Counted from the first letter of the stretch, positions 11,903-44,603 are shown. The stretch: DNA of 64,000 bases from an uncultured Acidobacteriota bacterium (GCA_963707795.1 OY970174.1:2208432-2272431), one strand, 5' to 3'. A program made the numbers and translations. The notes: generated from the letters alone by a model not told the origin.

Positions 11903-12004
11903 TTAAACCATGGTTATCGTCATGCCACAAGGTCGCTGCGCCGTCGTGGCCGGCACGCGTCCGATTGCCGAGCGGGTTGCTGCAGCGACGACTGGGCACA
12001 CTCG

Positions 12005-20537: not shown

Positions 20538-20815
20538 TGACTGCAATTGAGATACCCCAGAGTTGACGCACAATTCCACCCGGGCGGACGCCGCCCATCT
20601 ACAATCGTGCCCGGAACGACGACATGTGTGACGGAGGACTAAGCCCTCACGTAATCCTCTCGACATTTGACACCGCGCCGGCGCCTTTGGCCGTCACCGG
20701 CGTCCTGTGTCAGTTTTTTCGCGAGGGTACCGGCGACCTCATGGTCCAAACAACGCTGGTTGGCGGGTGCGTGCAGCCAGCGGTAGTTGCAGGTGTGGAG
20801 CGGCGCAGCATAAAG

Positions 20816-21973: not shown

Positions 21974-21984
21974 AGCGTATATCG

Positions 21985-22793
21985 ACCAGACGTGGCATCT
22001 TGTCCACGCCCGTGCCGCTCATCTCGCGAGGTTGCACCCGAGTCGGGCGCGCGTTCAGAGCGCGCTGCAGCTCCGCATTCGGGAGATCGCGTACCCGCGA
22101 CCGCGCTTTGGCTACCAGCGCATCTGGGTGATGCGGCGCGTGAAGGCTGGCCGATCAATCGGAAGCGCGTGCGGCGGTTGTATCGCCTCGACGGCTTGCA
22201 GGTACGGATGCGCGTGCGGCGACGGAAGCACATGGCGTTGCACCACGGGCCGGCGCCGATCCAGCGGGGCCGACCGCGCGCTGGAGCATGGATTTCGTCC
22301 ACGACGCGTTCGCCGACGGCCGTCGTTTCGTGTGCTCACGGTGGTCGATCAGTGGAGTCGGCAAAATCCGTTGCTGGAGGTGGCCTCAAGCATGTCCGGG
22401 ATGACCGTCGGACAGGGGTTAGATCGCGTGCTCGCCGGCCCACGGGTGCCGCGCTCGATCACCGTCGATCACGGCACCGAATTCATGTCGCGGGCGCTGG
22501 AGGATTGGGCCTATCGGCGCGGCGTGCAGCTGGATTTCATCCGGCCCGGGAAACCCGTGGAAAACGCGTTCATTGAAGCGTTTAACGGGCGCCTGCGCCA
22601 TGAGTGCTTGAACGTCCACCAGTTGACGTCGCTCGCCGATGCGCAAGCCAAGATTGAGGCGTGGCGCGTCGACTACAATCAGCGACGGCCGCACAGCTCG
22701 CTCGGGCATCTGACACCGGACGAAAACGCCGAACAGCGTCAGAATCGGGTCGTCGAAGAAGTCGCTTTTTCTAGCTTAGAACTGTCTCGTTAA
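21985..22793 (+). mobile_element. IS3-family (IS407-like) transposase OrfB remnant, N-terminally truncated and frameshifted
   Basis: Reading across three frames gives ...[23 protein letters not shown] / [31 protein letters not shown] / [18 protein letters not shown] / [12 protein letters not shown]...[52 protein letters not shown]...[24 protein letters not shown] (DDE/rve core). There is no OrfA. Shifts are near 22140, 22260 and 22325. Confidence 0.85.
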
Positions 22794-24209: not shown

Positions 24210-24238
24210 CCGACAGTTGAAAGTGTTGGTTGCGGGGG
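24210..24238. repeat. distal att-type direct repeat (orphan tRNA-fMet 3' end)
   Basis: CCGACAGTTGAAAGTGTTGGTTGCGGGGG is identical to 35622-35650. The flanking bases differ on both sides. Confidence 0.95.
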
Positions 24239-24385
24239 CTCGCAACCCGCTGAATTTGGAATTCTCCTGGTCGGCCGCGTAAACCCTCCGCGCGAGTAGT
24301 CGAAGCGCTCGTCTGATATTCTGCCTGGGACGCGACAGTCGTCGCCGCTCGGGTTCTGGCGACCGCTCCCGTGCAGGGCTAACAA

Positions 24386-24898
24386 GTGTTCTCCGTTCCA
24401 TTCGAGTTCAAGTGTTCGGCATGTGGCCGCGACCCTGCCGCGGCCGGCTGGAGCTTGTGTGCCCTCTGCGGCGGGTTCTTCTGCGGCGATCATCTGGTCG
24501 TGAAGAAGGGCGTGTCGACATGTGACTCGTGTGCCGTAGAGCGCGAGCCACGCGAGGCATCGGGCGGAGTATCCGCCGAGGATGAGGCTCGCGTCGTTTC
24601 GCTGGTTCGCGCGGACGTCGAGGCCACCATCGGCGCTGGACATGATGACGCGATCATCGAAGCGGCCGCGCGGCGTCGACTGTATGCGGACGTTCCCGCG
24701 CAGTATGTCGGCGACGTCGTTGATGACGTCCAGCAGTATTTCCATGACGCGTTTGTCGACACCACGTGGCCGGCGTGTCCGCATCATCCGAACCACCCGC
24801 TGTGGTTCTCTGACGGGTGGTGGCGCTGTGAACGCATCGAAGAGCCCATCGCCAGACTCGGGGCGCTCTTTGGCGTAAACCAGGAGCGCGAGGGTTGA
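24386..24898 (+). CDS. hypothetical zinc-ribbon protein
   Basis: 170 aa, GTG start. N-terminal CSACG...CALCGGFFCGDH...CDSC Cys cluster. C-terminal TTWPACPHHPNHPLWFSDGWWRCE motif. Intact frame. Low-GC stretch upstream. Confidence 0.55.
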   Translation: MFSVPFEFKCSACGRDPAAAGWSLCALCGGFFCGDHLVVKKGVSTCDSCAVEREPREASGGVSAEDEARVVSLVRADVEATIGAGHDDAIIEAAARRRLYADVPAQYVGDVVDDVQQYFHDAFVDTTWPACPHHPNHPLWFSDGWWRCERIEEPIARLGALFGVNQEREG

Positions 24899-25266
24899 CG
24901 CTTTGGGCAGTCATCTTCGCGGCTGCAGCAGGCATCGTCGCGTTCTTCGCTTGGGCGAACCGTCAGACGGCGAAAGCCCATGCGCGATTTACGGCCAATG
25001 ACGTCGAGATTGCTCTCGCTGAACTCTTGGACCCTGACGCGCCGACCCATGACACCTGGGATCTGTTTCTGGGATGGCCGATTGATGACCCGCACCTCGA
25101 GTCCGTTCGCCAGGAGTGCTTGAAGATCTGCCGCGAATGTCCGCCGGTTCCGGGTAAGGACATCAACGAAGAGGGCGAGACACGCGTTGCTGCGCTCCTA
25201 GCGGACCTGCGGCGCCACAGCAACTCGGGCAGCGGCGGTGCCGATGCTTTCTCGACCTCCGAATGA
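24895..25266 (+). CDS. hypothetical membrane-anchored protein
   Basis: 123 aa. Its TTG start overlaps the previous TGA (TTGA at 24895-24898). N-terminal TM segment LWAVIFAAAAGIVAFFAWA. No known domain. Confidence 0.5.
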   Translation: MTLWAVIFAAAAGIVAFFAWANRQTAKAHARFTANDVEIALAELLDPDAPTHDTWDLFLGWPIDDPHLESVRQECLKICRECPPVPGKDINEEGETRVAALLADLRRHSNSGSGGADAFSTSE

Positions 25267-25368
25267 AACACCCGACGGTTCGGCGCTTCGTAGGCACGTA
25301 CCATTGCAGATTGGGCCGAGCGGCGGTTCTGGTTCACAATAGAAGCTCGGTCGCCGGAGCCGTTTACC

Positions 25369-25600
25369 ATGCCGCAGCTAACGCGCATCACTCGTGACCC
25401 CGCCGTAATGGGCGGAAAGCCGTGCATTCGCGGCATGCGCGTCACGGTCGGCACAGTCGTCGGCCTCGTCGCCGCAGGACGCACTCGGGACGAGATTCTC
25501 CGCGAGAACCCCTACCTGGAGGCAGAGGACATAGCGGAGGCCCTGTCCTACGCCGCCTGGCGGGGTGGAGGAAGTCGAAGTTCCGCTGCGCCAGCCGTGA
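25369..25600 (+). pseudogene. DUF433 antitoxin-like protein (tail frameshifted at a G-run)
   Basis: MPQLTRITRDPAVMGGKPCIRGMRVTVGTVVGLVAAGRTRDEILRENPYLEAEDIAEALSYAAWR is DUF433. Removing one G from GGGG (25562-25565) restores ...RVEEVEVPLRQP-TGA at 25598-25600, overlapping the next gene's GTG. Confidence 0.65.
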
Positions 25601-25958
25601 AGCTTCTCGTGGATATGAACCTGTCCCCACGCTGGGTCGAGCGTTTGGTGCGTCACGGGTTCGAGGGCGTCCACTGGTCGACTATATCGGTGCTGCCAGC
25701 GCGCGCGACGTCGAGATCCTGACGTGGGCGAGCGAGCATGCGTTGGTCCTCATCACGAACGACCTGGACTTCTCGGCAATCCTCGCGGCCAGCGCTGGCG
25801 CCTCGCCGAGCGTCGTGCAAATTCGAGCCCAGGACCTGCTCTCCGATGAGGCGGTGAGCACCGTCGCCAGGGCACTCGAAGTACATCGTGAGGACATCGA
25901 GCGAGGCGCACTTCTGTCGATTGATGAAGGCGGGACGCGCGTAAGGATGCTGCCTCTC
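25597..25958 (+). pseudogene. DUF5615 (PIN-like) toxin-like protein, frameshifted near 25680
   Basis: VKLLVDMNLSPRWVERLVRHGFEGVHWS | IGAASARDVEILTWASEHALVLITNDLDFSAILAASAGASPSVVQIR...GTRVRMLPL is read from two frames. The natural stop appears to be lost. Confidence 0.6.
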
Positions 25959-26289
25959 AAGGGTTCGCACGGTGCCCTCGTAGCTGCAATCCCACTCCGC
26001 TCCGCAGGCTCTCGTCCCACCCTTGGTGGACGCACCGGCGCGACGGCACGCTGGACGGTGCGCACGCTCACCGCGCAGCCGCGACCGGCGAGCAACTGCT
26101 TCACTACCACCGCATCGCCCTCAGCCTCGACTTGAAAGAGCGTCTGCGCCGTCGCCTGATCGTCCGCGGACAGCCGACGCGTGGACAGCCGACGCGCGGA
26201 CGGCCGAACCTGCACACCGGCCACGGCGCCGCGCCGGGAGCGCCGCACCGTATTACGTATGCGCCGAGATAGTCGCCGCCCAGGCGTCA

Positions 26290-26972
26290 CGTGCGATCGA
26301 CTCCCTTCAAAGAAGTCTGACCGAGCACGGGATCGGGCACCGGTGGGACGACGATTACGTATCGGTCAAGACAGATGCTGGCCTGCTTCTCGACCTTCTG
26401 GGCCGGTTGGATCAACCGAGTTCCACGCCAGTGCTCGAGAACACCATCGGAGCGGCTGAGCCCTGGGTCAAGTTGTGGGGTGCGTTGGGATTGATCCGTA
26501 GCGGAGAGACTCGTCGCTCGGGAAGTCTTCCGGCAAATCGCCGAATGGCCTGAGTGCCGAATTACTCTGGCACGACAGCTCCAAGCGTTGGATCGATCGG
26601 AACTGTTTCCTGCCGACTTCTCGAACCAGCCGAGCCTGGCTGAAGCGGCGATGGTGGATTGGCTTCTTTACCCAACCGAGCTGGGACGAGCCCCCGACGA
26701 GATAAGGCAGTTGGAATCGCTTCCCGATTGAAACAGATGACGGTGTCGCCGACTTGTACGTCTTTGCCTTCAGGACCCACCCGCCACACTGGTTAGCCGA
26801 CAAGGATTGGGTCGTTGGCGTGGCCGGACCGTTCCTGGCGAGCGACCAGCCGACATTCGAGAGTCTCGGCGCCACCTTCAGTCAGTTCGAGAGCTTGTCC
26901 GTTAGACCGCTCGAGGAGCATGTGGAGACGCTGCGCAGATCCGTCGAAGGCATTTCCGGATCGGGAAGTTGA
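26290..26972 (+). pseudogene. decayed gene of unknown function (three frames)
   Basis: Pieces ...LLLDLLGRLDQPSSTPVLENTIG.., ..VAREVFRQIAEWPECRITLARQLQALDRSELFPADFSNQPSLAEAAMVDWLLYPTELGRAPDEIRQLESLP.., ..ETDDGVADLYVFAFRTHPPHWLADKDWVVGVAGPF.. read continuously only after shifts near 26495 and 26725. The 5' limit is uncertain. Confidence 0.35.
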
Positions 26973-27052
26973 CGCTGGGATCGTTCGCAGCCGGCGCCCT
27001 GGGAGCGTCGATGCGAGCGCCGGAAATACACCTATGCGCTCCCGAACGCCGC

Positions 27053-27406
27053 TTAAGCTGAGGCCGCGAGCGACTCCAGCCTCTTGAGCGTGTCGGGGTA
27101 TTTCCGCACTAGCCAGATCAACGCGGCAGCCTGCTCGTTCGGCTTGCTACGTCCCTGTTCCCACCGCTCGAGGGTGCGGGGGTTCACGCCAATCTTGAAC
27201 GCGAACACCTGGCGTGACATCTTGAGCGCCTCGCGCGTCTCACGGACAACGTCCGCGTCGATTGGCGGAACAGCGATCGGCTTCACTGCTCTGGTCTTCA
27301 ATGTGAGCCGACCTTCGCGGTGATCGCGCATGGCTTCCACGCCCGACATGAGCTCACGGAAGAGGCTGCGCTTCTTCCGAGCCACCGGTTGCTTCTTTAC
27401 TGCCAT
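27053..27406 (-). CDS. HigA-like XRE-family HTH antitoxin
   Basis: Start at MAVKKQ (27406). ...VRETREALKMSRQVFAFKIGVNPRTLERWEQGRSKPNEQAAALIWLVRKYPDTL. It starts 4 nt after the toxin stop. Confidence 0.75.
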   Translation of the reverse strand: MAVKKQPVARKKRSLFRELMSGVEAMRDHREGRLTLKTRAVKPIAVPPIDADVVRETREALKMSRQVFAFKIGVNPRTLERWEQGRSKPNEQAAALIWLVRKYPDTLKRLESLAASA

Positions 27407-27410
27407 AGTT

Positions 27411-27776
27411 TCATTTCCTTCGTCGGCGCCGTACGGCACGCCGCGCAAGTTCGACCTCGAGAGCCGCCTTCAAAGCCCGTTTCTCAGCGGCGCTCAGGTC
27501 GGCCATTTCGTCCTTGTCGTAGAGCGTCATCAGCCAGATCTGAGCGTCTGCCGAAAGGTGGTAGTAGATCACCCTGAGGCCACCACGCTTGCCCTTGCCT
27601 CGGCGCCGATCGGCCCATCGCAGCTTACGAAAACCGCCGGTGCCCGGCATGACATCGCCCGCCTCCGGATCCCCGGCTAGGAACAGCTGCAACGCTCGAT
27701 ATTCATCGTCCTCCAGGTAGCCCGCGACAATCGCTGTGAACGTCGGGGCCTCGATGAACTCCAGGCGATCGATCAC
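27411..27776 (-). CDS. RelE/ParE-superfamily (HigB-like) toxin
   Basis: C-terminal 121 aa of the track ORF: VIDRLEFIEAPTFTAIVAGYLEDDEYRALQLFLAGDPEAGDVMPGTGGFRKLRWADRRRGKGKRGGLRVIYYHLSADAQIWLMTLYDKDEMADLS. Toxin-first order. The GTG start at 27776 is uncertain. Confidence 0.7.
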   Translation of the reverse strand: MIDRLEFIEAPTFTAIVAGYLEDDEYRALQLFLAGDPEAGDVMPGTGGFRKLRWADRRRGKGKRGGLRVIYYHLSADAQIWLMTLYDKDEMADLSAAEKRALKAALEVELARRAVRRRRRK

Positions 27777-27796
27777 GCGATCTCGAGCGCCACTTT

Positions 27797-27955
27797 GCTT
27801 CGCTCCGGCTTCCAGGCGTTGATGCGCGACGCGTTGAACGGGCGGTTTGATGTCTGTACTCGCGGAGACCCTGGACCGTTTCAGCCGGGACCAGGAGGAC
27901 ACAGCAGGACTCTTCAAGCGTCTCACCTTCGCCGGCGTGAACATCGTCACGCTCG
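27797..27955 (+). pseudogene. fragment of a second serine-recombinase catalytic domain
   Basis: About 160 bp, roughly 80 percent identical by eye to 34111-34268 of the recombinase gene (LRSGFQALMRDALN.RFDV...LDRFSRDQEDTAGLFKRLTFAGVNIVTL). Contains one extra nt and is truncated at both ends. Confidence 0.8.
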
Positions 27956-27989
27956 ACCTCCGCGCGCACGAATTCGCGCTTACCGGCCA

Positions 27990-28379
27990 GAGACCTCGAT
28001 TGCCGAGAAGACCGAGGCGATGGTGCGGCTCGCGCTCGCGAACAGCCGGATGAAAGACTTCTTCGACATCCACCGCCTGGCCGACACTCGAACGTTCGAC
28101 GGTGAAACGATGAGGCTCGCAGTCGCGGCGACGTTCACGCGAAGGGGCATCGAGATCCCGGACGAACGTCCGCTCGCGCTGACCAGCGATTTCGCGGATG
28201 ACGCTCAGAAGAAGATTCAATGGGCAGCATTCGTTCGACGTGCACGACGGCCCGACCTTGCGGACCTGTTGGCCATCATTGCGACCCTTGATCGTTTTCT
28301 CTGGCCCGTGCTTCAAGCGGCCGCTCGAGGGGAACCATGGCCGCACATATGGTCGAACGGCGCGTGGAAACGACAGTAG
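27990..28379 (+). pseudogene. C-terminal fragment of an AbiEii/AbiGii-family nucleotidyltransferase toxin
   Basis: ETSIAEKTEAMVRLALANSRMKDFFDIHRLADTRTFDGETMRLAVAATFTRRGIEIPDERPLALTSDFADDAQKKIQWAAFVRRA is the conserved C-terminal third of the family. The N-terminal ~170 aa are absent, and it is fused in-frame to the recombinase fragment. Confidence 0.7.
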
Positions 28380-28389
28380 CGGCGTTCGC

Positions 28390-28914
28390 TCAGCACGATT
28401 CAGCTGTCACGTCGTCGTGAGCTTCGGCCTCGGTCGTGAAGCGCTTCACGAGAGGCTGGAGGCGTCCACTGAAGGTCAAGCCCCTTGCGGAGCCGAGCGA
28501 CCGCTCGGCGTCTGGCGCTCGTGAACGATCTGACGTTGCCGAGGAGTGGCCTTGGGTTTCGGCGCCACTCTGTTCTGCGACGACGGTGATTCTGGCTGAT
28601 TTCCTTGAACGCGGCTTTCGCCGAATCACGATCTCGACATCCTGGTCGAGCGCCGTCAACAGGTTCATCAGGCGTTCGACGGAGTAGCCCGCCAACTTGT
28701 AGTGACGAAGCGCGGAGACCTTCGGTTGGGTCACTCCCAGCACCTTGGCCGCGTCGGCCTGCGAGAGCTTGCGCCCGTCCAGCACCTGATTGAGCGCATA
28801 AGCCAGGCGAAGCTTAGCCTGTCGCCCGACGGCGTCTGGAAACCCAAGATCCGCGAACACGTTTCCGGTGCCCCGAGTGACCCGTTCTCGCCGTTCAGCA
28901 CTTCGACCTGCCAT
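28390..28914 (-). CDS. XRE-family HTH protein (orphan antitoxin-like)
   Basis: GTGNVFADLGFPDAVGRQAKLRLAYALNQVLDGRKLSQADAAKVLGVTQPKVSALRHYKLAGYSVERLMNLLTALDQDVEIVI. No partner toxin lies upstream. The last ~70 aa look like read-through. Confidence 0.65.
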   Translation of the reverse strand: MAGRSAERRERVTRGTGNVFADLGFPDAVGRQAKLRLAYALNQVLDGRKLSQADAAKVLGVTQPKVSALRHYKLAGYSVERLMNLLTALDQDVEIVIRRKPRSRKSARITVVAEQSGAETQGHSSATSDRSRAPDAERSLGSARGLTFSGRLQPLVKRFTTEAEAHDDVTAESC

Positions 28915-29022
28915 CTCGCTCCCTATACTCGGACTTCGCGATTATTCCAGTTCTGGGATGGTCAGACAACCGCTTCTGGTGTGGTCCACTCGGTATACTG
29001 GACTGTCACTGTCTCGACGCAC

Positions 29023-30414
29023 ATGCTCCTGACCATCCGAACGACTCACCAGCCGGCCACCGATCTCGGATTCCTGCTGCACAAGCACCCGAGCACGTGC
29101 ACACGCGGGAGTTCCCCTTCGGCAACGCCACGGTCTTCTACCCGGAGGCCAGTGAGGAATCGTGCACGGCGGCCGTGCTTCTCGACGTCGATCCGGTCGG
29201 CATGGTTCGTGGCCGAGGCGGCAAGGGCGGCGCCGAGGACCAGTACGTCAACGACCGGCCGTACGTCGCGTCGTCTCTACTCTCGGTCGTGATTTCGCGC
29301 TGGTTCAACTCCGCGCTGGGTGGCCGATGCGAGCGGAAACCCGATCTTGCGGCTTCTGAAATTGCCGCTCGAGGCGCGGCTCGCGGCCGTTCCCTGCCGT
29401 GGAGGCGAATCGTTCCTCCGCGCGTTGTTCGAGCCACTCGGCTACACGGTTGAAGCAACGCGCCACGAACTCGACGAGAGCATGCCGGCGCTCGGCCCGA
29501 GCCGGCTGTTCACGGTCACATTGCGAGCGGCCCGGCGGTTGAGCGACCTGCTCACGCACCTGTACGTGCTCGTCCCGGTTCGAGATGACCAGAAGCACTA
29601 CTGGGTTGGCGACGACGAAGTCGAGAAGCTGCTTCGTCATGGGCAAGGCTGGCTCGATAGCCATCCCGCGCGAGACGCCATCGTCTCTCGATACCTCGTG
29701 CACCAGCGAGGTCTGGTTCGTGACGCTATCGCGCGGCTGACGGCAGAGGAACAGCCCGAAGAGGAAACCGCAGCCGCTCAGAAGGACGAACAGGAAGCGT
29801 CGATCGAGCGCACGATCAGCCTGAACGAACGCCGCCTCGACGCCGTGTTCGAAGTACTGAAGGCCTCGGGCGCGTCCCGTGTGCTCGATCTGGGGTGTGG
29901 CGAAGGCAAGCTGCTTCGCCGCCTCCTGGCCGATCATCAGTTCGCGGAGATCGTCGGCATGGACGTGTCCGGCCGGGTTCTCGATCTGGCGGAATCGCGC
30001 TTGAAGCTCGAACGCCTTGCGCCGAAGCAGCGCGAGCGCATTCGCTTGATGCACGGCTCACTGATGTATCGCGACCCCCGGCTGAGCGGCTTCGACGCCG
30101 CCGCCGTCGTGGAAGTCATCGAACATCTCGACCAGCCTCGGCTGCGTGCCTTCGAACGGGTGCTCTTCGAATCTGCGCGCCCGGGAACCATCGTCCTGAC
30201 GACGCCGAACGCCGAATACAACGTGAAGTGGCCATCACTCCCGGCGGGACAGTTCCGTCACCAGGATCACCGCTTCGAGTGGACGCGCGCAGAGTTCCAG
30301 AGCTGGGCGAATGACGTGGCATCCCGGTTCGGCTATGCGGTGACCTATCGGCCTGTCGGCGATGAGGACACCACGGTTGGCCCTCCCACGCAGATGGCGG
30401 TGTTCGCCCGATGA
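29023..30414 (+). pseudogene. hen1: Hen1 3'-terminal RNA ribose 2'-O-methyltransferase (two frame corrections needed)
   Basis: MLLTIRTTHQPATDLGFLLHKHP | EHVHTREFPFGNATVFYPEASEESCTAAVLLDVDPVG...SALGGRCERKPDLAA | KLPLEARLAAVPCRGGESFLRALFEPLGY...VLDLGCGEGKLLRRLL...VVEVIEHLD. Shifts are near 29090 and 29358. Confidence 0.8.
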
Positions 30415-32958
30415 CCTTCACGATTCCCGAACTCTCCCTGGTGGTCCTGATCGGACCGTCGGGTTGCGGCAAGTCGACGTTCGCCAGAAAGCACTTCACG
30501 CCAACCGAGGTGATGTCGTCCGACGGATTCCGCGCGCTCGTGTCCGACGACGAGAACGACCAAGCGTCGACCGACGACGCTTTTGCCGCCCTGCATTTCG
30601 TGGCTGCGCGCAGGCTGGCGCGCGGAAAGCTCACCGTTGTCGATGCAACCAACGTTCAGCCCGAAGCCCGCAAGCCGCTCGTAGCGATTGCACGCGAATA
30701 CCACGTTCTGCCGGTAGCCATCGTGCTCGACCTGCCGGAGCGCGTCTGCCACGAACGCAATCGTTCGCGGCCAGACCGCGACTTCGGCCCACACGTGATT
30801 CGGAACCAGCGGAGCCAGCTGCATCGCTCCCTGCGTGGCCTCGGACGCGAAGGCTTCCGCCACGTGCACGTGCTCAAGTCGCAGGAAGAAGTTGATACCG
30901 CCGTCATCGAGCGGCAGCCGCTCTGGAACAACCGCAAGCGTGAGACGCGGTCCATTCGACATCATCGGCGACGTACATGGGTGCTGCGACGAACTCGAAC
31001 AGTTGTTGCAGCAACTCGGATACGAGAAGAACGACGGCGGACCATGGACGCATCCCGGGTGGTCGCAAAGCGATCTTCGTCGGTGACCTGGTGGACCGCG
31101 GGCCGCGCATCGTCGACACGCTCAGGACCGTGATGTCGATGTCAGCGGCCGGTAGCGCCCTCAGCGTGCCCGGGAACCACGATATCAAGCTGAAACGCAA
31201 GCTCGAGGGGCGCGACGTGCACCGTCTCGCACGGGCTTGACCGCACGCTGGCGGAACTCGAACAGCAGACGCCGGAGTTCCGCGCCGAAGTACAGCAGTT
31301 TCTCGACGGCCTGGTGAGTCACTACGTGTTCGACGGCGGCCAACTCGTGGTCGCGCACGCCGGCATGAAGGCGGAAATGCAGGGGTGCGGGTCGGCCAGG
31401 GTGCGGGACTTCGCTCTTTTCGGTGAAACGACAGGTGAGACCGACGAGTTCGGGCTGCCCGTCCGCTACAACTGGGCGGCCGAGTACCGCGGACCTGCCA
31501 GCGTGGTCTACGGCCACACGCCCGTTCCTGAGCCCGAATGGCTCAATCGCACCATCAACATCGATACCGGGTGCGTGTTCGGCGGCAAGCTCACGGCCCT
31601 GCGCTGGCCCGAGAAGGAGCTCGTCTCGGTTCCGGCCCGGCAGACGTACGCGGACCCGGTTCGCCCGTTCATGCCGCCGGCGGCCTCGCCGCTGAGCGCC
31701 CAGCAGGCGAACGATGACCTCCTGGACATCGAGGACGTGCGGGGGAAGAAGCTCGTCACGACTCGGCTGCACCGAAGCGTGACAATCCGCGAGGAGAACG
31801 CGGCGGCTGCACTGGAGGTGATGAGCCGATTCGCGGCGAATCCGAAGTGGCTGATCTATCTCCCGCCGACGATGTCGCCAAGCGAGACCAGCAAGGCCGA
31901 GGGTCTGCTCGAGCATCCCGCCGAGGCGTTTTCGTACTATCGAACCAACAGCGTATCGACGGTCGTCGTTGAGCAGAAGCACATGGGCTCCCGCGCCATC
32001 GTCATCGTGTGCCGGGACCAGGGACGTCGCCCGTGCGCGATTCGGTGTCCTCGAAGACGAGGATGGCATCTGCTATACACGCACTGGTCGTCGGTTCTTT
32101 GAGAATGCGGCGCTGGAGCGTGAGCTGCTGGCGACCGTGCGGACCGCCCTCGACGCATCGGGGTTCTGGGAGCGGCTGAACACCGATTGGGTGTGCCTCG
32201 ACTGCGAGCTGATGCCATGGTCGGCGAAGGCGCTCGAGCTTGTTCGGCAACAGTACGCGTCGGTTGGTACAGCCGCTCGCGTGGGCCCGGGCGAAACCGT
32301 GCGGGCGCTCGAGACCGCCGGCGCGCGCGGTATCGACATCGGGGCTCTCCTCGAACGTCACAAGGTTCGTCTGGAGCTTGCCGAACGGTTTGCGAGGTCG
32401 TATCGCAACTATTGCTGGCCCGTCGAGTCGCTGCGGGACATCCGCATCGCCCCGTTCCACGTGATGGCCACCGAAGGCGCTGTGCACGCCGGCAAGGATC
32501 ACGTCTGGCACATGAACGCGATCGGCAGCTTTGTCGAGGAGGGAGACGGCCTCCTGATGCGCACGCCCTATCAGGTCGTGAACCTCGCTGATCCCGCCAG
32601 CAAGACAGCAGCAACCGGCTGGTGGGTGAACCTGACCGCGACTGGCGGTGAGGGCGCGGTCGTCAAGCCGTTGCAGTTCGTGGCGACCAGGTCTCGTGGC
32701 CTGTTGCAGCCAGCGGTGAAGTGCCGCGGGCGTGAGTATCTGCGGATTATCTACGGGCCTGAGTACACCCTGCCCGAGCATCTCGAGAGGCTGCGGGAGC
32801 GGGGGCTGTCGGGTAAGCGATCGCTGGCCCTTCGGGAGTTCGCGTTGGGGATCGAAGGCCTCGAACGATTCGTGCAGCGAGAACCTCTCAGACGTGTTCA
32901 CGAGTGCGTGTTCGGTGTTCTCGCACTCGAGAGCGAGCCAGTCGATCCGCGCCTGTAG
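30411..32958 (+). pseudogene. pnkp: polynucleotide kinase-phosphatase Pnkp (four frame corrections needed)
   Basis: ATG overlaps the hen1 TGA (ATGA). Kinase P-loop LIGPSGCGKST. Phosphoesterase motifs PFDIIGDVHGC, FVGDLVDRGP, GNHD, VYGHTP. Ligase-like C-terminal domain VVVEQKHMGSRAIVIVCRD...YTRTGRRFF...CLDCELMPWS. Shifts are near 30950, 31055, 31221 and 32021. Confidence 0.8.
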
Positions 32959-33224
32959 CAGAAGCTTTCTCTCCTTCTGGATGCGCCAGGAGCAAACGCA
33001 AGCGAAGAAAAAGAGGGGGGAACACAGACTCGGGAGCAGTGGTCCCCCTTTGCTCGTGCGCGGTTCGCCGAATCAATGAGCCACGAGAGGAAGGTGATTG
33101 AGTCAATCGGTGAACTAGCGATGTTCTTTGCAATCAGCCACTTCACCACTGTTCAATCGGGCGGCGCTGTTTGCCGCCCGTGTCGCAGTCGGCGCAGTTG
33201 TCGGCAGCAGTGGTGGAGGCATCT

Positions 33225-33300
33225 GGGGCGTGAGCGACCCCCATTTGCGCTGCCCCCTTCATGGTCCCACGCCCAGTCCGTAGGGGGTCGCTCACGCCCC
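33225..33300. repeat. perfect 18-bp inverted repeat with 40-nt spacer in a ~1-kb gene-poor stretch
   Basis: GGGGCGTGAGCGACCCCC (33225-33242) and GGGGGTCGCTCACGCCCC (33283-33300). Confidence 0.9.
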
Positions 33301-33957
33301 AGACGCATGTCTCGTTCGTCCGGAGGAACTGCGCATGTCCCGTCGCTGTCGAGTGCGCCGACATGAGCCGCCGCGTGCGCGCCAGCCGTTCACCGGTTCG
33401 ATCCGCACGGCTGTCAGGTTTCGCCGGGAACTTGCGTTCATTAAAGGTGAGCGCGCACTCGCTCTGAATCCTGAACTGCGGCGGCCGACGATCGCCGCCT
33501 CCTGCCTCTCTTCCACCAGCGCGCCTCGATCGCCTTGCGACGTTCGCCGACGTGCGGCGACGGTCGCGTGCACGGCGGCCATCACGACGCGAGATTGTCC
33601 GGCGGTCCACGGCTCGGTCAAGCCACTCCGCTTCGCTCCGTCCGCTTCGCGGCTTCGGGCTTGACCGAACCGCGGCTCCGCCGGGTTCTCGCAATTACGT
33701 GATGGCCTCCAGGCTGACCGTCGCACTCACGCGGAACGAATCGATTCATCCTCGAAGGAGTCGCGGCGTTATGATCCGATCTCGAGAGCGGCGCAATCGA
33801 CGACGCGCGACGGTGCGCGAGGCCTCGTCCGACGCGACGATCGTTGCGACGAACCGCTGCGAGCGCTCGTTCGCACGCTCGCTCGGCAAGCCGCACGCGA
33901 GCTCTTCGCGCGGGAGCTGACGACGCAACGACAGGATCGACCTGAGGTGACAGTGCA

Positions 33958-35570
33958 ATGAAGGTTGCGATCTACGCGCGGTACTCCTCGGACAACCAAC
34001 GCGACGCCTCGATCGCGGACCAGCTCCGCATCTGCCGCGAGTTCGCCGCTCGCCAGGGCTGGACGGTCGTTCAGGAGTTCACCGATCACGCGATCTCCGG
34101 CGCGACGCTGCTGCGCTCCGGCTTCCAGGCGCTGATGCGCGACGCGTTGAACCGCCGCTTCGACGTCGTGCTCGCCGAATCGCTGGACCGCTTCAGCCGC
34201 GATCAGGAAGACACCGCCGGTCTCTTCAAGCGCCTCACCTTCGCCGGCGTCAACATCGTCACGCTCGCCGAAGGCGACATCACGCATCTGCACATCGGGT
34301 TCAAAGGGACGATGAACGCGCTGTTCCTGAAGGACCTCGCCGAGAAGACGCATCGAGGACTGCGTGGGCGCGTGGAGAGCGGCAAGGCTGGCGGCGGGCT
34401 CTGTTATGGCTACCGCGTGGTGAAATCGCTGGCCGGTGGCACCGCTCACGACGGGCGAACGAGCGATCGAACCAGGGGAAGCTGCGATCGTGGAACGCAT
34501 CTTCCGGGAGTACGTCGCAGGAATCGCGCCGAAAGCGATTGCGAAGCGGCTGAATCAGGACGGGATCGCCGGACCGTTCGGCGGAACGTGGAGTCCAAGC
34601 ACGATTCACGGGAACTCGAAACGTGGTACGGGCATCCTGAACAACGAGCTCTACGTCGGGCGTCTGATCTGGAACCGACTGCGTTACGTGAAGAATCCGG
34701 ACACCGGCAAACGCATCTCGCGGCTGAATCCGAAGGCAGAGTGGATCACCAAGGAGATTCCGTCCCTCCGGATAGTGAGCGACGAACTCTGGAACGCCGC
34801 GAAGGACCGTCAGAGCGCAACGCGACGAACGATCACACGCACCGGCAACATCGGCTTCGCAAGGCGGCCTCAGTATCTGTTCTCAGGGCTGTCGAAATGC
34901 GGCGTCTGCGGCGCTGGTTTCATCATGGCCGGCCGGAATCGGCTCGCATGCTTCGGCGCTCGCGAGAAAGGCACCTGCGACAACCGCCTCACCATCAGGC
35001 GTGACGAGGTCGAGAGGCGAGTTCTGAAGGCGCTCGAGGAGAAGCTCCTGAACCAGGAACTCTTCGAGGAGTTCTGCGAAGAATTCACGCGCGAGATGAA
35101 CCGGCTGCGAATGGAACACCGCGCCAGTCTGTCCGCGGCGGAACGCGAGATCGAGCGGATCGAAGTCCGGCGCAAGAAGCTGATCGAGATGGTGATGGAA
35201 CGGCGTGGCGCCTTCAGAGGTGAAGGACGAGCTGAACGCGAATGCAGCCAGACGGCGAGGAACTGAAAGCGACAGCTCGCAGCCACGGACGAGCCGCCAC
35301 CGCTGCTGCATCCGGAGATGGCCGGCTCTACCGCCGAAAAGGTCACAGCAGCTGGCGACAGGCCCTGGAGCATCCAGAGACCCGCACGGAAGCCTCTGAG
35401 GCGCTTCGTGGCCTGATGGACGCCATCGTCCTGACGCCGGACCAGGGCGAACTTCAAATCGAGCTGAAAGGGAATCTGGCGGCGATGCTGGGGGCCGCCC
35501 ACCCGCCTTCGCGCGCGCATAGAACGCAAGCGCGCGTACGGCGCGTCCGCCGTAGCTTTAACGGAGGCGG
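33958..35570 (+). pseudogene. large serine recombinase (resolvase domain + recombinase domain + zinc ribbon), multiply frameshifted
   Basis: MKVAIYARYSSDNQRDASIADQLRICREFAARQGWTVVQEFTDHAISGA...LDRFSRDQEDTAGL... (catalytic Ser in YARYSS). It continues in other frames: ...GERAIEPGEAAIVERIFREYVAGIAPKAIAKRLN...LSKCGVCGAGF...C...C..., APSEVKDELNANAARR, EELKA, ATDEPPPLLHPEMA, ALEHPETRTEASEALRGLMDAIVLTPDQGELQIELKG. At least 6 indels are needed. The 3' end is uncertain. Confidence 0.85.
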
Positions 35571-35605
35571 AAAATGCGAAGAGGTCGCCAGAAACGGGCG
35601 ACCTC
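35571..35605 (-). terminator. rho-independent-type terminator downstream of tRNA-fMet (island-borne)
   Basis: GAGGTCGCC-N7-GGCGACCTC (35581-35605, 9-bp perfect stem), followed on the minus strand by TTCGCATTTT (35580-35571). Confidence 0.6.
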
Positions 35606-35621
35606 TCGCTGCAAGTTGTGA

Positions 35622-35638
35622 CCGACAGTTGAAAGTGT

Positions 35639-35650
<12 letters not shown>
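35622..35650. repeat. proximal att-type direct repeat (overlaps the tRNA-fMet 3' end)
   Basis: Identical to 24210-24238. Positions 35639-35650 are the last 12 nt of the tRNA. Confidence 0.95.
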
Positions 35651-35715
<65 letters not shown>

Positions 35716-35894
35716 ACACTGAAGAAATGAATTATACCACGGCCACGCCACCCACGCCCACACCACCCACGCCCATTCCCCTCGACCGAGTGATTCGCCG
35801 GGTGACCAGGCCATGCTTCAAGCGGGAGCGTCGCGTCCTGCTGCTCGCCGGCGCCTGTGCCCGGCGCGCCGCCGGCCGGGCGCGGGTCGAGTCC

Positions 35895-36509
35895 CTACGT
35901 TCGCGCCGGCGCGGCCCGCGCCGCGCGACTCGCCTGGCGCCTGGTCACGGCGCGCACGACCCGCGCGCCGAGCAGCACCCCCACCACCGCGGCATAGATC
36001 ATCGGATCGGTGACGTCGAGCTTCACCTTCCACCAGTAGTGGATCACGCCGAGAATCGCCGTCGCGTACACCAGCCTGTGCAGCAGGGTCCAGCGCCGCC
36101 CGCCGAGCCGCCGGATCCAGCCCTTCGTGGAGGTGAGCGCCAGCGGAATCATCAGCACGAATCCGGTGAACCCCACGGTGATGTAAGGCCGCTTGACGAT
36201 GTCTTCCCACAGGCCGTCGAACATCAACGACCGGTCGAGGATGAAGTAGATCAGGAAGTGGATGCTGCCGTAGAAGAACGCGAACAGGCCGACCATCCGA
36301 CGCACCGAGATGATCGGGTTCCACCCGGTGAGCCATCGCACCGGGGTGATCGCGATGGTGACGACGATCAGCCGCAGCGTCCAGATGCCGGTGGTGTTGG
36401 TGATGGTCTCGATCGGGTTGGCGCCCAGGTCGCCCATGAACCCGCGCGCCACCAGCCACGCCAGCGGCGCCAGCGCGGCGACGAACACGGCGGGCTTCAG
36501 GAAGACCAC
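35895..36509 (-). CDS. msrQ: protein-methionine-sulfoxide reductase heme-binding subunit MsrQ
   Basis: 204 aa, GTG start. ...ANPIETITNTTGIWTLRLIVVTIAITP...VRRMVGLFAFFYGSIHFLIYFILD...RPYITVGFTGFVLMIPLALTS...WTLLHRLVYATAILGVIHYWW is the typical YedZ/MsrQ pattern. Confidence 0.9.
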   Translation of the reverse strand: MVFLKPAVFVAALAPLAWLVARGFMGDLGANPIETITNTTGIWTLRLIVVTIAITPVRWLTGWNPIISVRRMVGLFAFFYGSIHFLIYFILDRSLMFDGLWEDIVKRPYITVGFTGFVLMIPLALTSTKGWIRRLGGRRWTLLHRLVYATAILGVIHYWWKVKLDVTDPMIYAAVVGVLLGARVVRAVTRRQASRAARAAPART

Positions 36510-36513
36510 GGGA

Positions 36514-36548
36514 ACGAAGGACGAAGGACGAAGGACGAAGAACGGAAC
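36514..36548. repeat. heptanucleotide tandem repeat (ACGAAGG x4 plus one degenerate unit) in the msrP-msrQ spacer
   Basis: ACGAAGG ACGAAGG ACGAAGG ACGAAGA ACGGAAC. A second motif, CGTTCGGC, occurs three times at 36617-36647. Confidence 0.85.
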
Positions 36549-36716
36549 CGGGAACGTGGAACGGCGGAAGGGAACGAAGAACCGGTCGGGGTAATCCGAG
36601 CGGTCCAGCGGTCCGAGCGTTCGGCGTCGGCGTTCGGCACGTTCGGCAGGCTCGAGGCGTGCATTCCGATCGGATCCGGTGCGTGGTTCGCTACCAACGA
36701 CAACTGGCGCTCCCGG

Positions 36717-37680
<964 letters not shown>

Positions 37681-37804
37681 GGTCTCTCTCGATCATACCA
37701 GCCCGGCGCCGCACGCACGACCGCGCGGAACGAGGCCCTCTCGACCTTTGATGCCGGAGCCGGCGTGAAGGAGTCGGGCCGGCGTACGATACCGTTGGCC
37801 CGTC

Positions 37805-38464
37805 ATGGAGCAGGATCGAGCCGCCGACATCCTGTCACTGCTGTCGCACGAACTGCGCGGTCCGCTGGGCGTGATCCGCGGCTACCTGAAGCTCCTCGAA
37901 CAGGCGTCGCCCGCGTTGACCGACGCGCAGCAGCGTGCGGTGGCAGCGGCGCTGAAAGCCAGCGACCGCACCGCGGAACTGTTGACGCAGACCAGCCTGC
38001 TGGCGAACGTGCAGCGTGGCACCGTGGTGCTCGCCCGTCGGACCGTGGCGTTGGCGGACGTCCTCACCAACGCGGTCGCCGAGGCATCGCGCACATCCGG
38101 CAAGGGTTTGACCTTCGAGCCACGTGACCTGCCGCCGGCACGGATCGACGTTGACCCGGCAGTGCTGTCCAATGCCCTCGCCAACCTCATGACGGCCGTC
38201 GTACGCGCACGGCCGTCCGACCCGGTGATCGCCGTCACTGCCGCGCGCGATGTCCGCGACGGCACCGCCGGGGTCGCGACGCGCGTCGCCCCGCCGGAGA
38301 CGACGCAGGCCGACCCGCATGCGGTCGACATCACCCGCGGCGGCCACGGACTCGACCTCCCCATCGCCGGCGCGCTCATCGCGGCCCAGGGCGGAAGCCT
38401 CCACGAACTGCGCGAGGGCTCGCGATTCGCCGGCGTGGTAGTGTGGTTGCCCACCACGCCGTGA
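37805..38464 (+). CDS. small soluble histidine-kinase-like protein (HisKA + HATPase-like)
   Basis: H-box LSLLSHELRGPLGVIRGYLKLL. C-terminal GGHGLDLPIAGALIAAQGGSL. No sensor or TM region. Confidence 0.65.
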   Translation: MEQDRAADILSLLSHELRGPLGVIRGYLKLLEQASPALTDAQQRAVAAALKASDRTAELLTQTSLLANVQRGTVVLARRTVALADVLTNAVAEASRTSGKGLTFEPRDLPPARIDVDPAVLSNALANLMTAVVRARPSDPVIAVTAARDVRDGTAGVATRVAPPETTQADPHAVDITRGGHGLDLPIAGALIAAQGGSLHELREGSRFAGVVVWLPTTP

Positions 38465-39138
38465 CCAACCCGGTTTTCCTGCGCATGGCCTGCCTGGCGC
38501 TCCTGCTGAGCGGCCTCACCGTGCCGGCGCGCGCCCAGATGCGCCTGGCCGACGCGTCCGACCGCGCGGCGTTCCGATCGTGGTTCGTGCTGCTCGCCGA
38601 TGCACAGTTCGAGCGCGCCGCGGCGGAAGTCATCGACTGCGCGGCGCTGGTCCGCTTCGCCTTTCGCGAGGCGCTGCGCGCGCACACGCCGGAGTGGGCC
38701 CGGCAGGTGGCGCTCCCCGTGGCGCCGCCGTTCCCCGACGTGCGGTCGGGGCCGCCGCCCGACGCGCGGGGCTGGCCACTCTTCCGCGTCGCGGCCACCC
38801 CGCCGCGCTACGCCGAGTTCGCCGACGCACGCACGCTGATCGCCCTCAACACCCGGCGCATCAGCCGCGACTCGACCAGGCTGCAACCGGGCGACCTGCT
38901 CTACTTCCACCAGCCCGAGCAGCGCCAGCCCGATCACCTGATGGTGTTCGTCGGCCGCTCGTTCTTCGAGCCGGCGCATGCCGACTGGATCGTTTACCAC
39001 ACGGGCGCGAGCGACGAGGGGCCGGGCGAGGTGCGCAAGGTCCGGCTCGCCGACCTCCTGCGTCATCCGGCCGCGCGCTGGCGGCCGGTGCCCACCAACC
39101 CGCAGTTCGCCGGCATCTTCCGGTTCACCGCGCTGTGA
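38443..39138 (+). CDS. DUF1175 (YfaT-like) protein
   Basis: Signal MACLALLLSGLTVPARA. ...FRSWFVLLADAQF...DCAALVRFAFREAL...LQPGDLLYFHQPEQRQPDHLMVFVG...WIVYHTG. Its TGA overlaps the GTG of the A2M gene (GTGA at 39135-39138). An alternative start is M at 38485. Confidence 0.7.
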   Translation: MVAHHAVTNPVFLRMACLALLLSGLTVPARAQMRLADASDRAAFRSWFVLLADAQFERAAAEVIDCAALVRFAFREALRAHTPEWARQVALPVAPPFPDVRSGPPPDARGWPLFRVAATPPRYAEFADARTLIALNTRRISRDSTRLQPGDLLYFHQPEQRQPDHLMVFVGRSFFEPAHADWIVYHTGASDEGPGEVRKVRLADLLRHPAARWRPVPTNPQFAGIFRFTAL

Positions 39139-42100
39139 CACCGCACGCGAGAGGCGTCATCGGACCGGCCGTCGCGACCCGGTCGCACGCCATCGTGGCG
39201 GCGACGCTGCTGCCCTTCGTGGCCGCCACGATCCTGCTCGTGCCGGCAATCGCCGCCGCGCAGGAGCCTGCGACGGAGGTCACGCCGGCCTTCTCGCTGT
39301 CGAGCAGCGAGATCTTCACCACGCGCGATCCGGCGTCGTTCAACCTGACGTTCCGCCGCGTCACGCAGCTGGATTTTCGCGTGTACCGCGTGCGCGACCC
39401 GTTCCAGTTCTTCGCCGGCCTGCGCGACCCGCACCAGCTGGGCAGCGAGGAGCAGCCGGTTCCGCTCGAGCGGAGCTGGATCGAGCGGCTGGCGGAGTGG
39501 AAGACGACGCGCCGGCGCGAGATCCGCGGGTTCTTCCGCGGCCAGGTGAGCGCCGGCTATCGCGTGCAGCGCCGGGCGGCGCAGGACCGCCAGCAGATTG
39601 CCCGCCGCGTCGTGCTCGACGCGGCGTCGTTCGCGCAGGTGCCGCTCATCAACCCCGATCAGCTGGTCGTCGCGTGGCGCGAGATGCTGCCCGATCATCG
39701 CGATGCGGAGTACCGCCGCGTGCCGCTCGAGATCGACCAGCCCGGCGTCTACCTGGTCGAGGCCGTGTCCCACCTCCTCCGCGCCTACACCATCGTCATC
39801 GTCTCCGACCTCGGCCTGGTCACCAAGGTGGCGCCCGGGCAGATGCTGCTGTTCGCCGCGGATCGGTTCAGCGGCGAGCCGACGTCCGGCTGCGACGTGC
39901 AGGTGCTCGCCAACCAGCAGCCGATCGGCAGCGGCCGGACGGATGCGGACGGCGTCCTCGCGCTCGCCCTGCCCGAGGTCAAGGCCGACGCGATCGTCGG
40001 CGTCGCCCGGTGCGGCGACCAGGTGGCGGCGACCGACCCGGGCGGCTGGTTCGCCAGCATGCCGGTGCGCGAGCTGGCCGGCTACGTGTACACCGACAAG
40101 CCGGTCTATCGTCCCGGGCACACCGTCCACCTCAAGGCGATCGTGCGCTGGCGCGAGCGCGACGCGCTCGTGCCCTTCGACCGGCCCGAGGTCGAGGTCC
40201 GGGTCAGCGACACGCAGGACAAGGTCGTGTTCCGGCGGACGATGGCGGTGGACGGGTTCGGCGCCGTGGCCGCGTCGTTTCCGGTGCCCGCGTCGGCGGC
40301 GCTCGGGGCCTACAGCGTCCGCGTCGCGACGGGCGAGTACGAGGCGCAAGGCGCCTTCGAGGTGCAGGAATACCGGCGACCCGAGTTCGAGGTGATGCTG
40401 ACCCCGTCGAGCCGATTCGTCGTGCAGGGAGACGAGGCGGTGGCGTCGGTGCAGGCGCGGTACTACTTCGGCCAGCCGGTGGCACACGCGCGCGTCCGCT
40501 ACGTCGTGAACCAGCAGGCGTACTTCTCGCCATTCCGCTGGAATGACGAGGCCGAGGGCGACGCAGGCGGCGGGTTCTGGTACGGCGGCGACCAGACGAT
40601 CGAGGGGGAGCTCAGGCTCGACGCCCAGGGACGCGGCGAGATCCGCGTGCCGTCGCCCGTGGACGAACACGGACGCGACGTGAGCCTGCGGATCGAAGCC
40701 CAGGTGACCGATGCCAGCAGCCGCGAGGTCAGCGGCAGCACCGTCGTGCATGCCACCTACGGCGGCTTCCTGCTCTCGACGCGCGTGGGCGGCTACATCT
40801 TTGGCCCCTCGCAGCCGGTGCCGGTCGCGGTGCGCGCGCTCGACTATGCCGGCAACCCGCAGCCGGGCGTCGCGATCACGTTCGTGCTCGAACAGCTGAC
40901 CTATCCGTCCGGCTCCTATGGCGACCCGGCCGCCGCGGCGGTGGGGCGCAGCAGCGCGACGACCGGTGCCGACGGGTCGGCGAGCGCGTCGGTCACGCTG
41001 CCGTCCACGCCGGGTGCGTATCGCGTGCGCACGATCGCCACGGCCGGTGACCGGGAGATCGGCGACACAGCGTGGCTCTGGGTTCCCGGTGCGCAGGACG
41101 CCGCGGCCGACGAGGGCGATCGCTACCTCGAGCTCATCGCCGACAAGCGTTCGTACGCGCCGGGCGACACCGCGCGACTGATCGTGCGCGGCGAGCCGGT
41201 GTCGGGGCCGATGCTGGCGACCAAGGAAGGCCAGCAGGTCTCGTGGCACCGCCTGCTCCGGCCGGCAGCGTCGGACGCGATCGAAGTGCCGATCGAGGCG
41301 GCGGATGTCGGCGACATCCAGGTGAACATCACCTTCATGCGCGAGGGCCGGCTGTACCGCGCGGAGCGGCGGCTATCGGTCCCCGCGACCGACCGGATGC
41401 TGCAGATCGCGCTCACGCCCGATCGGGCCACCGCCAAGCCGAGCGAGCCCGGCGTCTTCACCGTCCAGGTCACCGACGCGACCGGCGCGCCGGTCAGCGC
41501 CCAGGTGAGCCTCGGCGTCATCGACGAAGCGGTCTATGCCATCCGCGCCGACACCACGCCGGATCCGGTCCGCTTCTTCTACCGCCGCGAGTACAGCCGC
41601 GTCGGGACCAGCTTCTCGCGCGACTACTACTTCACCGGCTTCTCGGGCAGCGAGCGGCTGCAGCTCGCGGGACGCCGGCGGCGGCCGGCGACGCTGGCCG
41701 ACTTCAAGGGCGACGCGCCCATCCAGCCGCAGGTCCGCAAGGAGTTCCCCGACGCCATCTACTGGCTGAGCGACCTGGTGACCGATGCCGGGGGGCAGGC
41801 CAGGGTCTCGATCAAATATCCGGATGCGCTGACGACCTGGCGGCTGACCGCGCGCGCGGTGACCCGGGACACGCGCGCCGGCGTTGCCATCGCGCGCACG
41901 ACCACGACCAAAGATCTCATCGTCCGCGTCATCACCCCGCGGTTCCTGACCGAAGGCGACAGAATCGTGCTGCCCACGATCGCGCACAACTACCTGCCGG
42001 ACGCCAGGCAGACGCGTGTGTCGCTCACCACGAGCGGTCTGGACACCGATGCGGCCGGCGGCGCGGCGCTCGCCCCGACGAGCGGCATGCTGGCGAGCGG

Positions 42101-44600: not shown

Positions 44601-44603
44601 CAA

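Follow-up and report, generated by a model that had tools for sequence, protein, structure and literature searches.

A canonical Hen1–Pnkp RNA-repair operon carried in a tRNA-Met-integrated element, with frame breaks that are probably consensus errors

The DNA analysed here, referred to as the window, is a 64,000-nucleotide (nt) stretch from an uncultured Acidobacteriota bacterium (GCA_963707795.1, OY970174.1:2208432-2272431), and all positions are counted from its first letter. The listing of open reading frames (ORFs) and the Pfam annotation showed that 29023-32958 encodes, on one strand, an entire Hen1 and then a three-domain Pnkp, and the TGA of hen1 and the ATG of pnkp share the tetranucleotide ATGA at 30411-30414. 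The two genes are as follows:

29023-30414, plus strand: hen1, with an N-terminal Pnkp-ligase-activating domain and a C-terminal 3'-terminal ribose 2'-O-methyltransferase
30411-32958, plus strand: pnkp, with three domains (5'-OH kinase, 2',3'-phosphatase, ligase)

Pfam recovered Hen1_L in three ORF pieces, which occupy two frames and cover profile positions 1-30, 27-117 and 114-241, and the S-adenosylmethionine methyltransferase domains Methyltransf_12/23/25 were found within 29320-30414. The pnkp domains as assembled are spread across five ORF pieces, with the AAA_33 kinase at 30411-31133, Metallophos at 30977-31240 and PNKP_ligase divided between 31314-32102 (profile 1-73) and 31969-32958 (profile 72-377); this order matches the kinase-phosphatase-ligase order of the family. 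The NCBI equivalog models TIGR04075 (bacter_Pnkp) and TIGR04074 (bacter_Hen1) were run on the frame-corrected proteins, giving 1392 bits for Pnkp (cut-off 750) over positions 1-851 of 851 and 694 bits for Hen1 (cut-off 340). Every solved C. thermocellum or Anabaena domain was matched by the corrected proteins with E values from 1e-64 to 1e-169. The matches of Pnkp in the PDB were 4gp6 for the kinase (residues 1-170), 4j6o for the phosphatase (171-419) and 4drf for the ligase (439-851), with the ligase structure 3ty8 in addition, and those of Hen1 were 4dqz for the N-terminal domain (residues 1-228, E 9e-81) and 3jwh for the methyltransferase (257-463, E 2e-75).

The Hen1 and Pnkp translations contain MLLTIRTTHQPATDLGFLLHKHP, VLDLGCGEGKLL, VVEVIEHLD, GPSGCGKST, DIIGDVHGC, GDLVDRGP, GNHD and EQKHMGSRA, and the active-site motifs GPSGCGKS, DIIGDVHG, GDLVDRG, GNHD, AHAG, GHTP and EQKHMGS are all present in the corrected Pnkp. 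The metal and phosphate ligands of the C. thermocellum phosphatase are D187, H189, D233, R237, N263, H264, H323 and H376 (PMC3675462). Correspondence of catalytic residues was assigned from motif context, and from a residue-level alignment for the ligase domain. The Pfam order, the equivalog scores, the structural matches and the motifs together establish membership of the Pnkp-Hen1 family in all respects except uninterrupted frames, and the locus is therefore a canonical bacterial Hen1-Pnkp RNA-repair operon of the fused-ligase type. This system is already well known from many phyla, and the locus adds another member. A megablast of the cassette against the plasmid database PLSDB returned only a trivial 39-bp match, and a scan for promoters and terminators gave no informative signal. 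PADLOC matched mad2/mad3 weakly or partially in the pieces of the Hen1 methyltransferase and the Pnkp kinase, and no defence system was indicated.

The frames of both genes are interrupted as assembled, and the breaks were located by frameshift-aware protein-to-DNA dynamic-programming alignment using the intact hen1-pnkp of L001 as the reference. L001 is an uncultured Acidobacteriota metagenome-assembled genome (MAG) with 82% nucleotide identity to the window, and it holds, together with L081, the closest intact copies. Plain tblastn spanned the out-of-frame stretches and so concealed the shifts. Hen1 carries a 1-nt deletion near 29092 (GG to G) and a 1-nt insertion near 29361, with a net change of zero. 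Pnkp carries four 1-nt insertions, near 30948, 31054, 31220 and 32016-32022, of which the first three jointly restore the frame and the fourth does not; the site at 32016-32022 is GG to GGG relative to the JGI contigs L084 and L085. Several breaks interrupt domains, one directly after the ligase motif-I lysine at EQKHMGSRA and others in the phosphatase metal-binding core. After correction, neither frame holds an in-frame stop codon, and Hen1 and Pnkp are 90% and 87% identical to those of L001, respectively, at the amino acid (aa) level. A codon-length difference at Pnkp residue 423 is real, because it is also found in L081, L084 and L085. An earlier note on this DNA had recognised Hen1, the three-domain Pnkp, the motifs and the ATGA overlap, all of which are present by Pfam and in the translations, and had proposed a profile search of the frame-corrected proteins, which recovers both families at the scores given above. 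Its count of two breaks in Hen1 and four in Pnkp also proved correct, and its positions (29090, 29358, 30950, 31055, 31221 and 32021) lie beside those found by alignment (29092, 29361, 30948, 31054, 31220 and 32016).

All six lesions are gains or losses of 1 nt, and the L001-guided alignment revealed no stop codon derived from a substitution. The ratio of nonsynonymous to synonymous substitution rates (dN/dS) in hen1-pnkp is 0.05-0.08 between the window and both L083 and L001, and 0.07-0.10 between the window and both L084 and L085. L083 (ENA contig ERZ25039516:contig_48190) is from the same species as the window, L085 is a contig of JGI 3300081524, and L084 and L085 are short-read JGI contigs, presumed to be Illumina. 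Over the 313 codons 3' of the last pnkp shift, a stretch that would be untranslated if that shift were real and old, the ratio is 0.07. Both genes are under strong purifying selection throughout. A comparison of the window with L084 over 1.6 kb (90% nucleotide identity) found 165 substitutions and one indel, which is the frameshifting GG to GGG, and the frames of the short-read relatives are intact. The hen1-pnkp of L083 carries four and nine frameshifts, respectively, no stop codons, and no shift at the same codon as a shift of the window; the nearest pair lies at Pnkp codons 211 and 214, and was compared at the codon rather than the nucleotide level.

Lesions of the same kind occur in chromosomal genes. 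The chromosomal msrP (36691-37680, minus strand) is broken by an additional C at 37118, whereas the approximately 99%-identical L083 has an intact MsrP of 320 aa; the true C-terminus of the window's msrP is read in a different frame. An alpha-2-macroglobulin gene (about 39180-43863) shifts frame near 42176, just 5' of the thioester CTEQ motif. In two blocks, 35.6-38.5 kb and 44-45 kb, the window and L083 reach 99-100% identity, and 1-nt indels there are about as frequent as substitutions. Across 35600-46433 the two are a mosaic in which some blocks are 99-100% identical and others 84-90%, and this mosaic looks like mixed-strain consensus error or strain-level recombination. The alpha-2-macroglobulin gene of L083 has 33 + 22 = 55 frameshifts against the open frame of the window, with about 11 1-nt indels per kb in the divergent blocks. 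Indels are thus concentrated where co-occurring strains differ, a pattern expected of a consensus built from mixed long reads and not of evolution, and we infer a long-read and/or mixed-strain metagenome assembly as the source. In a test for a chimeric consensus, sliding identity to the relatives was mosaic, with no clear coincidence between the switches and the frameshift sites. A CarboxypepD_reg gene at 19196-20666 was compared with paralogue references at 24-28% identity, at which a frameshift alignment is unreliable, and the neighbouring 472-aa gene is intact.

The hen1-pnkp pair lies inside an 11.4-kb element of low guanine-plus-cytosine (GC) content at 24239-35650, whose ends and recombinase are as follows:

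24210-24238, no strand assigned: left copy of a perfect 29-nt direct repeat resembling an attachment (att) site, from the repeat search
35622-35650, no strand assigned: right copy of this repeat, ending in 12 nt that form the 3' end of tRNA-Met
35639-35715, minus strand: tRNA-Met (CAT), at which the element is integrated, called by ARAGORN and by Rfam (RF00005, 66.3 bits)
33958-35500, plus strand: large serine recombinase (Resolvase, Recombinase and Zn_ribbon_recom by Pfam), in two overlapping ORFs in different frames

The 29-nt repeat has two matches in the window, against 0.00 expected by chance. The serine recombinase adjoins tRNA-Met at one end of the element and is frameshifted near 34400-34480 and, by eye, also near 35200-35260; its counterpart in L083 has 419 aa. 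The GC content is 0.62-0.65 in the element and 0.70-0.75 in the flanks, and a codon model trained on the chromosome calls most of 23.9-35.8 kb non-coding. The same element stands at the same tRNA-Met/msrQ site in L083, with an extra insertion sequence (IS). In L085 (1612-2090), about 370 bp separate pnkp from the same tRNA-Met and the serine recombinase is absent, the counterpart of window positions of about 33556-35409 being missing; this recombinase-less form is presumably fixed. The hen1-pnkp pair is cargo of an element integrated at the 3' end of tRNA-Met, within the boundaries given. The tRNA-linked island that the earlier note had proposed is thereby borne out by the repeat over the tRNA-Met 3' end, the serine recombinase and the lower GC content.

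A tyrosine integrase, sought as an explanation of the long att-like repeat, was absent from the ORFs scanned with Pfam. Neither an empty tRNA-Met site nor an excised form of the element was found; L083 has the element at this tRNA, and L085 has pnkp near it. Rfam on the whole window detected tRNA only, and Pfam had no match in the ORFs of 26.0-27.0 kb or of the spacer at 32.96-33.96 kb. The stretches 32959-33957 and 26023-27000, each of about 1 kb, accordingly carry no Pfam or Rfam match, and positions 33475-33555 are 90% identical in L085; two family-less ORFs also lie in the element. The region at 17.6-24.2 kb is likewise low in GC yet falls outside the repeat, and holds CarboxypepD_reg proteins, a TPR protein, an IS3-type transposase and YecM. 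The IS3-family transposase (21623-22790, HTH_21 and rve/rve_3) lies outside the repeat-bounded element in two overlapping ORFs, a split possibly due to the programmed -1 frameshift that IS3 elements usually have. The extra insertion in L083 (11709-12866) is an IS-type transposase of 385 aa (HTH_38 and rve) between tRNA-Met and the serine recombinase, and is absent from the window.

Further genes of the element, several of them of toxin type, are located upstream of hen1:

28390-28914, minus strand: HTH_37 (Xre/HigA-like) DNA-binding protein (Pfam PF13744, E 1.6e-26), divergent from hen1
27770-28379, plus strand: Resolvase N-domain fragment fused to the C-terminal approximately 45% of AbiEii (repeats, Pfam and PADLOC)
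27053-27776, minus strand: HigBA-like toxin–antitoxin (TA) pair, with a RelE-family toxin at 27411-27776 and then an HTH_3/MqsA-like antitoxin at 27053-27448
25369-25958, plus strand: DUF433 antitoxin-like gene and then a DUF5615 (PIN-like) gene (Pfam, DUF433 E 1e-23)

The HTH_37 protein may be a regulator or an orphan antitoxin; its gene has the same position in L083, and a homologue lies 3' of pnkp in L052. The AbiEii piece (27957-28379) covers Pfam profile positions 128-226 of 238 and PADLOC AbiEii positions 166-293 of 299, the catalytic half being missing. The resolvase fragment to which it is joined (27770-27955, 186 nt) duplicates recombinase positions 34083-34267 with 86% identity and a 1-nt offset, and the same fusion is called in L083, which makes it an old rearrangement. 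The RelE-family toxin matches PF06296 weakly, at 22.6 bits under a 27-bit cut-off. The antitoxin matches HTH_3 (E 1.4e-7) and MqsA_antitoxin (E 4.9e-5), and also TIGR03830 (E 1.7e-8), below the cut-off of that model; a weak or partial PADLOC match to RmrA fell on it, and no defence system was indicated. DUF5615 is split by a frameshift near 25690, with profile positions 2-30 in one frame and 29-108 in another.

The neighbourhoods of hen1-pnkp were surveyed in 80 species-representative loci (L001-L080). In nearly all of these loci with enough upstream sequence, hen1 and pnkp share a strand and hen1 comes first. In L001 and L081, both at about 82% nucleotide identity, homology to the window is confined to 29022-32958/60, the flanks are unrelated and there is no tRNA within 10 kb. 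Because only these two genes are shared with the window, the unit of inheritance or transfer is the two-gene cassette. A tRNA occurs within 10 kb in four of the 80 loci (L011, L025, L043 and L073). Pfam was run on the two nearest ORFs on each side (119 upstream and 144 downstream), and no TA, Abi or integrase family was present among the 25 most frequent neighbour families listed per side. The common neighbour families are mostly lineage-specific and include DUF697 GTPases and Rce1-like, Uma2, mechanosensitive-channel and TPR proteins, and RtcB is among the two nearest ORFs upstream of hen1 in four loci. In cyanobacterial loci, a DUF697/dynamin-like GTPase (nine loci) and an Rce1-like protein (seven loci) were found upstream, and Uma2 (eight loci) downstream. 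The proteins of the element matched two of the 80 loci by tblastn, namely HTH_37 in L052 and the DUF433/DUF5615 pair in L076.

Four of the surveyed neighbourhoods are described individually. In L076 (Verrucomicrobiota MAG), the DUF433/DUF5615 pair stands directly 3' of pnkp at 5761-6347, and in L052 (Bryobacteraceae MAG), the HTH_37 homologue stands about 750 nt 3' of pnkp at 11675-12034. In L043 (PLHW01000044.1, Acidobacteriaceae MAG bog_205; region 429-20639), hen1-pnkp at 6984-10933 lies between two tRNA groups, one of 25 tRNAs at 429-5878 and one of five at 20180-20639, with RtcB within the array at 4424-5767. An HNH endonuclease is situated just upstream of hen1 in this locus, and a cytidine-deaminase-like protein, an EEP nuclease and HipA downstream. 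This neighbourhood combines a tRNA back-up with two RNA-repair systems and is consistent with the long tRNA array (L-array) neighbourhoods of PMC8421152. In L073 (Gemmatimonadaceae MAG), genes for tRNA-Asp, tRNA-Tyr, tRNA-Arg and tRNA-His lie at 2381-2876, about 4 kb upstream of hen1. Colicins E5 and D cut these same tRNA species, and the agreement may be a coincidence.

The six frame breaks are most likely assembly artefacts, a judgement that we hold with good confidence. Several observations weigh against it. A short homopolymer context is clear for only two of the indels (near 29092 and at 32016-32022) and perhaps applies to two more. The frameshift density of the element is six in the 3.9 kb of hen1-pnkp (about 1.5 per kb), with at least two more in the recombinase and DUF5615, against two confirmed and about three possible shifts in about 46 kb of chromosomal sequence scanned with a three-periodic codon hidden Markov model, and a uniform error rate is therefore inadequate. 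The Resolvase-AbiEii fusion is undoubtedly a real decayed gene in the element, common to L083, and so some decay of the element's cargo is plausible. If the frameshifts were real, hen1, pnkp, the recombinase and DUF5615 would be very recent pseudogenes in a decaying, immobilised island. A frameshift density at least tenfold that in the flanking chromosome of this assembly speaks for this reading, as do the old Resolvase-AbiEii remnant in both the window and L083 and the complete loss of the recombinase from L085, by which the element is degenerating in this lineage. Six independent lesions in two genes, however, normally bring tens of neutral substitutions and some stops, whereas no nonsense codon and no indel longer than 1 nt is present and dN/dS stays at 0.05-0.10 throughout, the would-be untranslated part included. 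Furthermore, L083 has an entirely different set of 13 shifts, and the conserved chromosomal msrP shows the same type of lesion against a contig of about 99% identity. We consider such pseudogenes unlikely. No other part of the locus diverges as much between strains as the element, which is about 84% identical to L083 whereas the flank is 92% identical overall, and under a mixed-consensus model this divergence would account for the local excess of shifts.

The breaks could also be meaningful, either as programmed frameshifting or as boundaries that leave the pieces to act as separate domain proteins in the manner of Pnkp1-Rnl-Hen1. Split systems do occur naturally, Pnkp1, Rnl and Hen1 being separate proteins in the system described in PMC4411300. 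The cuts in the window, however, fall within domains, after the motif-I lysine of EQKHMGSRA and in the phosphatase metal-binding core, and the corrected Pnkp aligns end to end with the fused model. The break positions differ between the window and L083, and the close relatives are unbroken; the lack of conservation of these positions already effectively refutes this possibility, which we regard as extremely improbable. The earlier note had called the cassette either dead or mis-sequenced, and the 1-nt-only lesions, the low dN/dS and the differing shifts of L083 narrow this choice toward mis-sequencing.

The neighbouring toxin-type genes raise the question of whether RNA damage and RNA repair travel together, as the earlier note had suggested. 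Its calls of the toxin neighbours were broadly right, with the qualifications that the RelE match is weak and that AbiEii is a remnant. Under functional coupling, Hen1-Pnkp would act with the RelE/HigB-like, DUF5615 and AbiEii toxins and move with them as a unit. Co-residence in one 11.4-kb element bounded by direct repeats argues for such a module, as do the DUF433/DUF5615 pair directly 3' of pnkp in L076, the nearby HTH_37 in L052, and L043, in which hen1-pnkp stands beside RtcB, a 30-gene tRNA array and HipA. In Anabaena, translational stress induces hen1-pnkP at a late stage, when toxin RNases are induced too, and toxin RNases and RNA repair have already been proposed to be physiologically linked in general (PMC8421152). 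Against coupling, the two repair genes are all that L001 and L081 have in common with the window, no TA, Abi or integrase family is among the 25 neighbour families listed as most frequent for the 80 loci, homologues of the element's TA or regulator genes occur in two of the 80 loci, and a tRNA lies within 10 kb in four. The AbiEii of the window is a fragment lacking its catalytic head. The RNA cut by RelE-type toxins is ribosome-bound mRNA, and not the stable RNA to which Hen1-Pnkp repair is usually ascribed. With neither recurrent TA/Abi nor recurrent tRNA linkage across the surveyed loci, a module of RNA-damage and RNA-repair genes travelling together is not supported, and functional coupling to these toxins appears very unlikely. 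The co-location is lineage-specific (the window, L083 and, in part, L085) and is best read as ordinary island clutter. Hen1-Pnkp might be selected cargo of a small tRNA-Met-targeting element, conferring portable immunity against ribotoxins that cut tRNA or rRNA and that belong to the same or competing elements, with L043 as another such "translation-apparatus protection island"; we regard this proposal as quite unlikely.

Taken as a whole, the locus is probably best explained as a canonical operon carried as cargo by the element, with the breaks arising from consensus errors and the TA genes being clutter. Pnkp and Hen1 act on broken RNA by end healing by Pnkp, 2'-O-methylation by Hen1 and sealing by the Pnkp ligase. 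By analogy, the Pnkp encoded here would phosphorylate the 5'-OH of broken RNA and strip the 2',3'-cyclic phosphate, Hen1 would 2'-O-methylate the 3'-terminal ribose, and the Pnkp ligase, activated by the N-terminal domain of Hen1, would then seal the break, thereby leaving a methylated junction that would withstand renewed cleavage. Judged from the sequences, both enzymes are predicted to be active. The operon would thus be a passenger of the 11.4-kb element at the 3' end of tRNA-Met; its true genes would probably be intact and functional behind six consensus errors, and the neighbouring TA genes and remnants would be the usual clutter of an integrative element rather than dedicated repair partners.

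The co-oriented hen1-to-pnkp arrangement, the domain order and the catalytic motifs are the same as those of the C. thermocellum and Anabaena variabilis Pnkp-Hen1 systems (PMC3675462), and the locus differs from these in its Acidobacteriota-like, probably Vicinamibacteria-like, host and in the six 1-nt indels as assembled. Whereas the copies in the 80 closest species lie in ordinary chromosomal contexts, the cassette of the window is inside a tRNA-Met-integrated element. The Capnocytophaga gingivalis Pnkp1-Rnl-Hen1 system shares the chemistry of healing, 2'-O-methylation and sealing and a Hen1 partner; its ligase is the separate Rnl (PMC4411300), whereas here the kinase-phosphatase and the ligase form one protein. 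Between the window's Hen1 and that of C. gingivalis (4xrp), the match is weak, with an E value of 2e-9. The element resembles other tRNA-targeted integrative elements in its repeat duplicating the tRNA 3' end, adjacent recombinase, low GC content, TA modules and remnants; such elements usually carry a tyrosine integrase, whereas a large serine recombinase is present here. RNA-processing genes have been reported to be enriched around long tRNA arrays with neighbouring RNA-repair genes (PMC8421152), and L043 agrees with this; the window is unlike these arrays in having a single tRNA-Met as an integration site. What is unusual about the locus is solely its location in a tRNA-Met-integrated element bearing a serine recombinase and a long att-like repeat.

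Little is at stake scientifically, since Pnkp-Hen1 has already been characterised biochemically and structurally. The locus carries a lesson on data quality, in that 1-nt indels clustered in strain-variable regions, as in the window and L083, make intact genes look like pseudogenes, and pseudogene calls on islands in such assemblies are not to be trusted without reads. If the placement of the operon on a tRNA-integrated element is adaptive, it would offer a modest case of the horizontal spread of RNA repair as immunity against ribotoxins.

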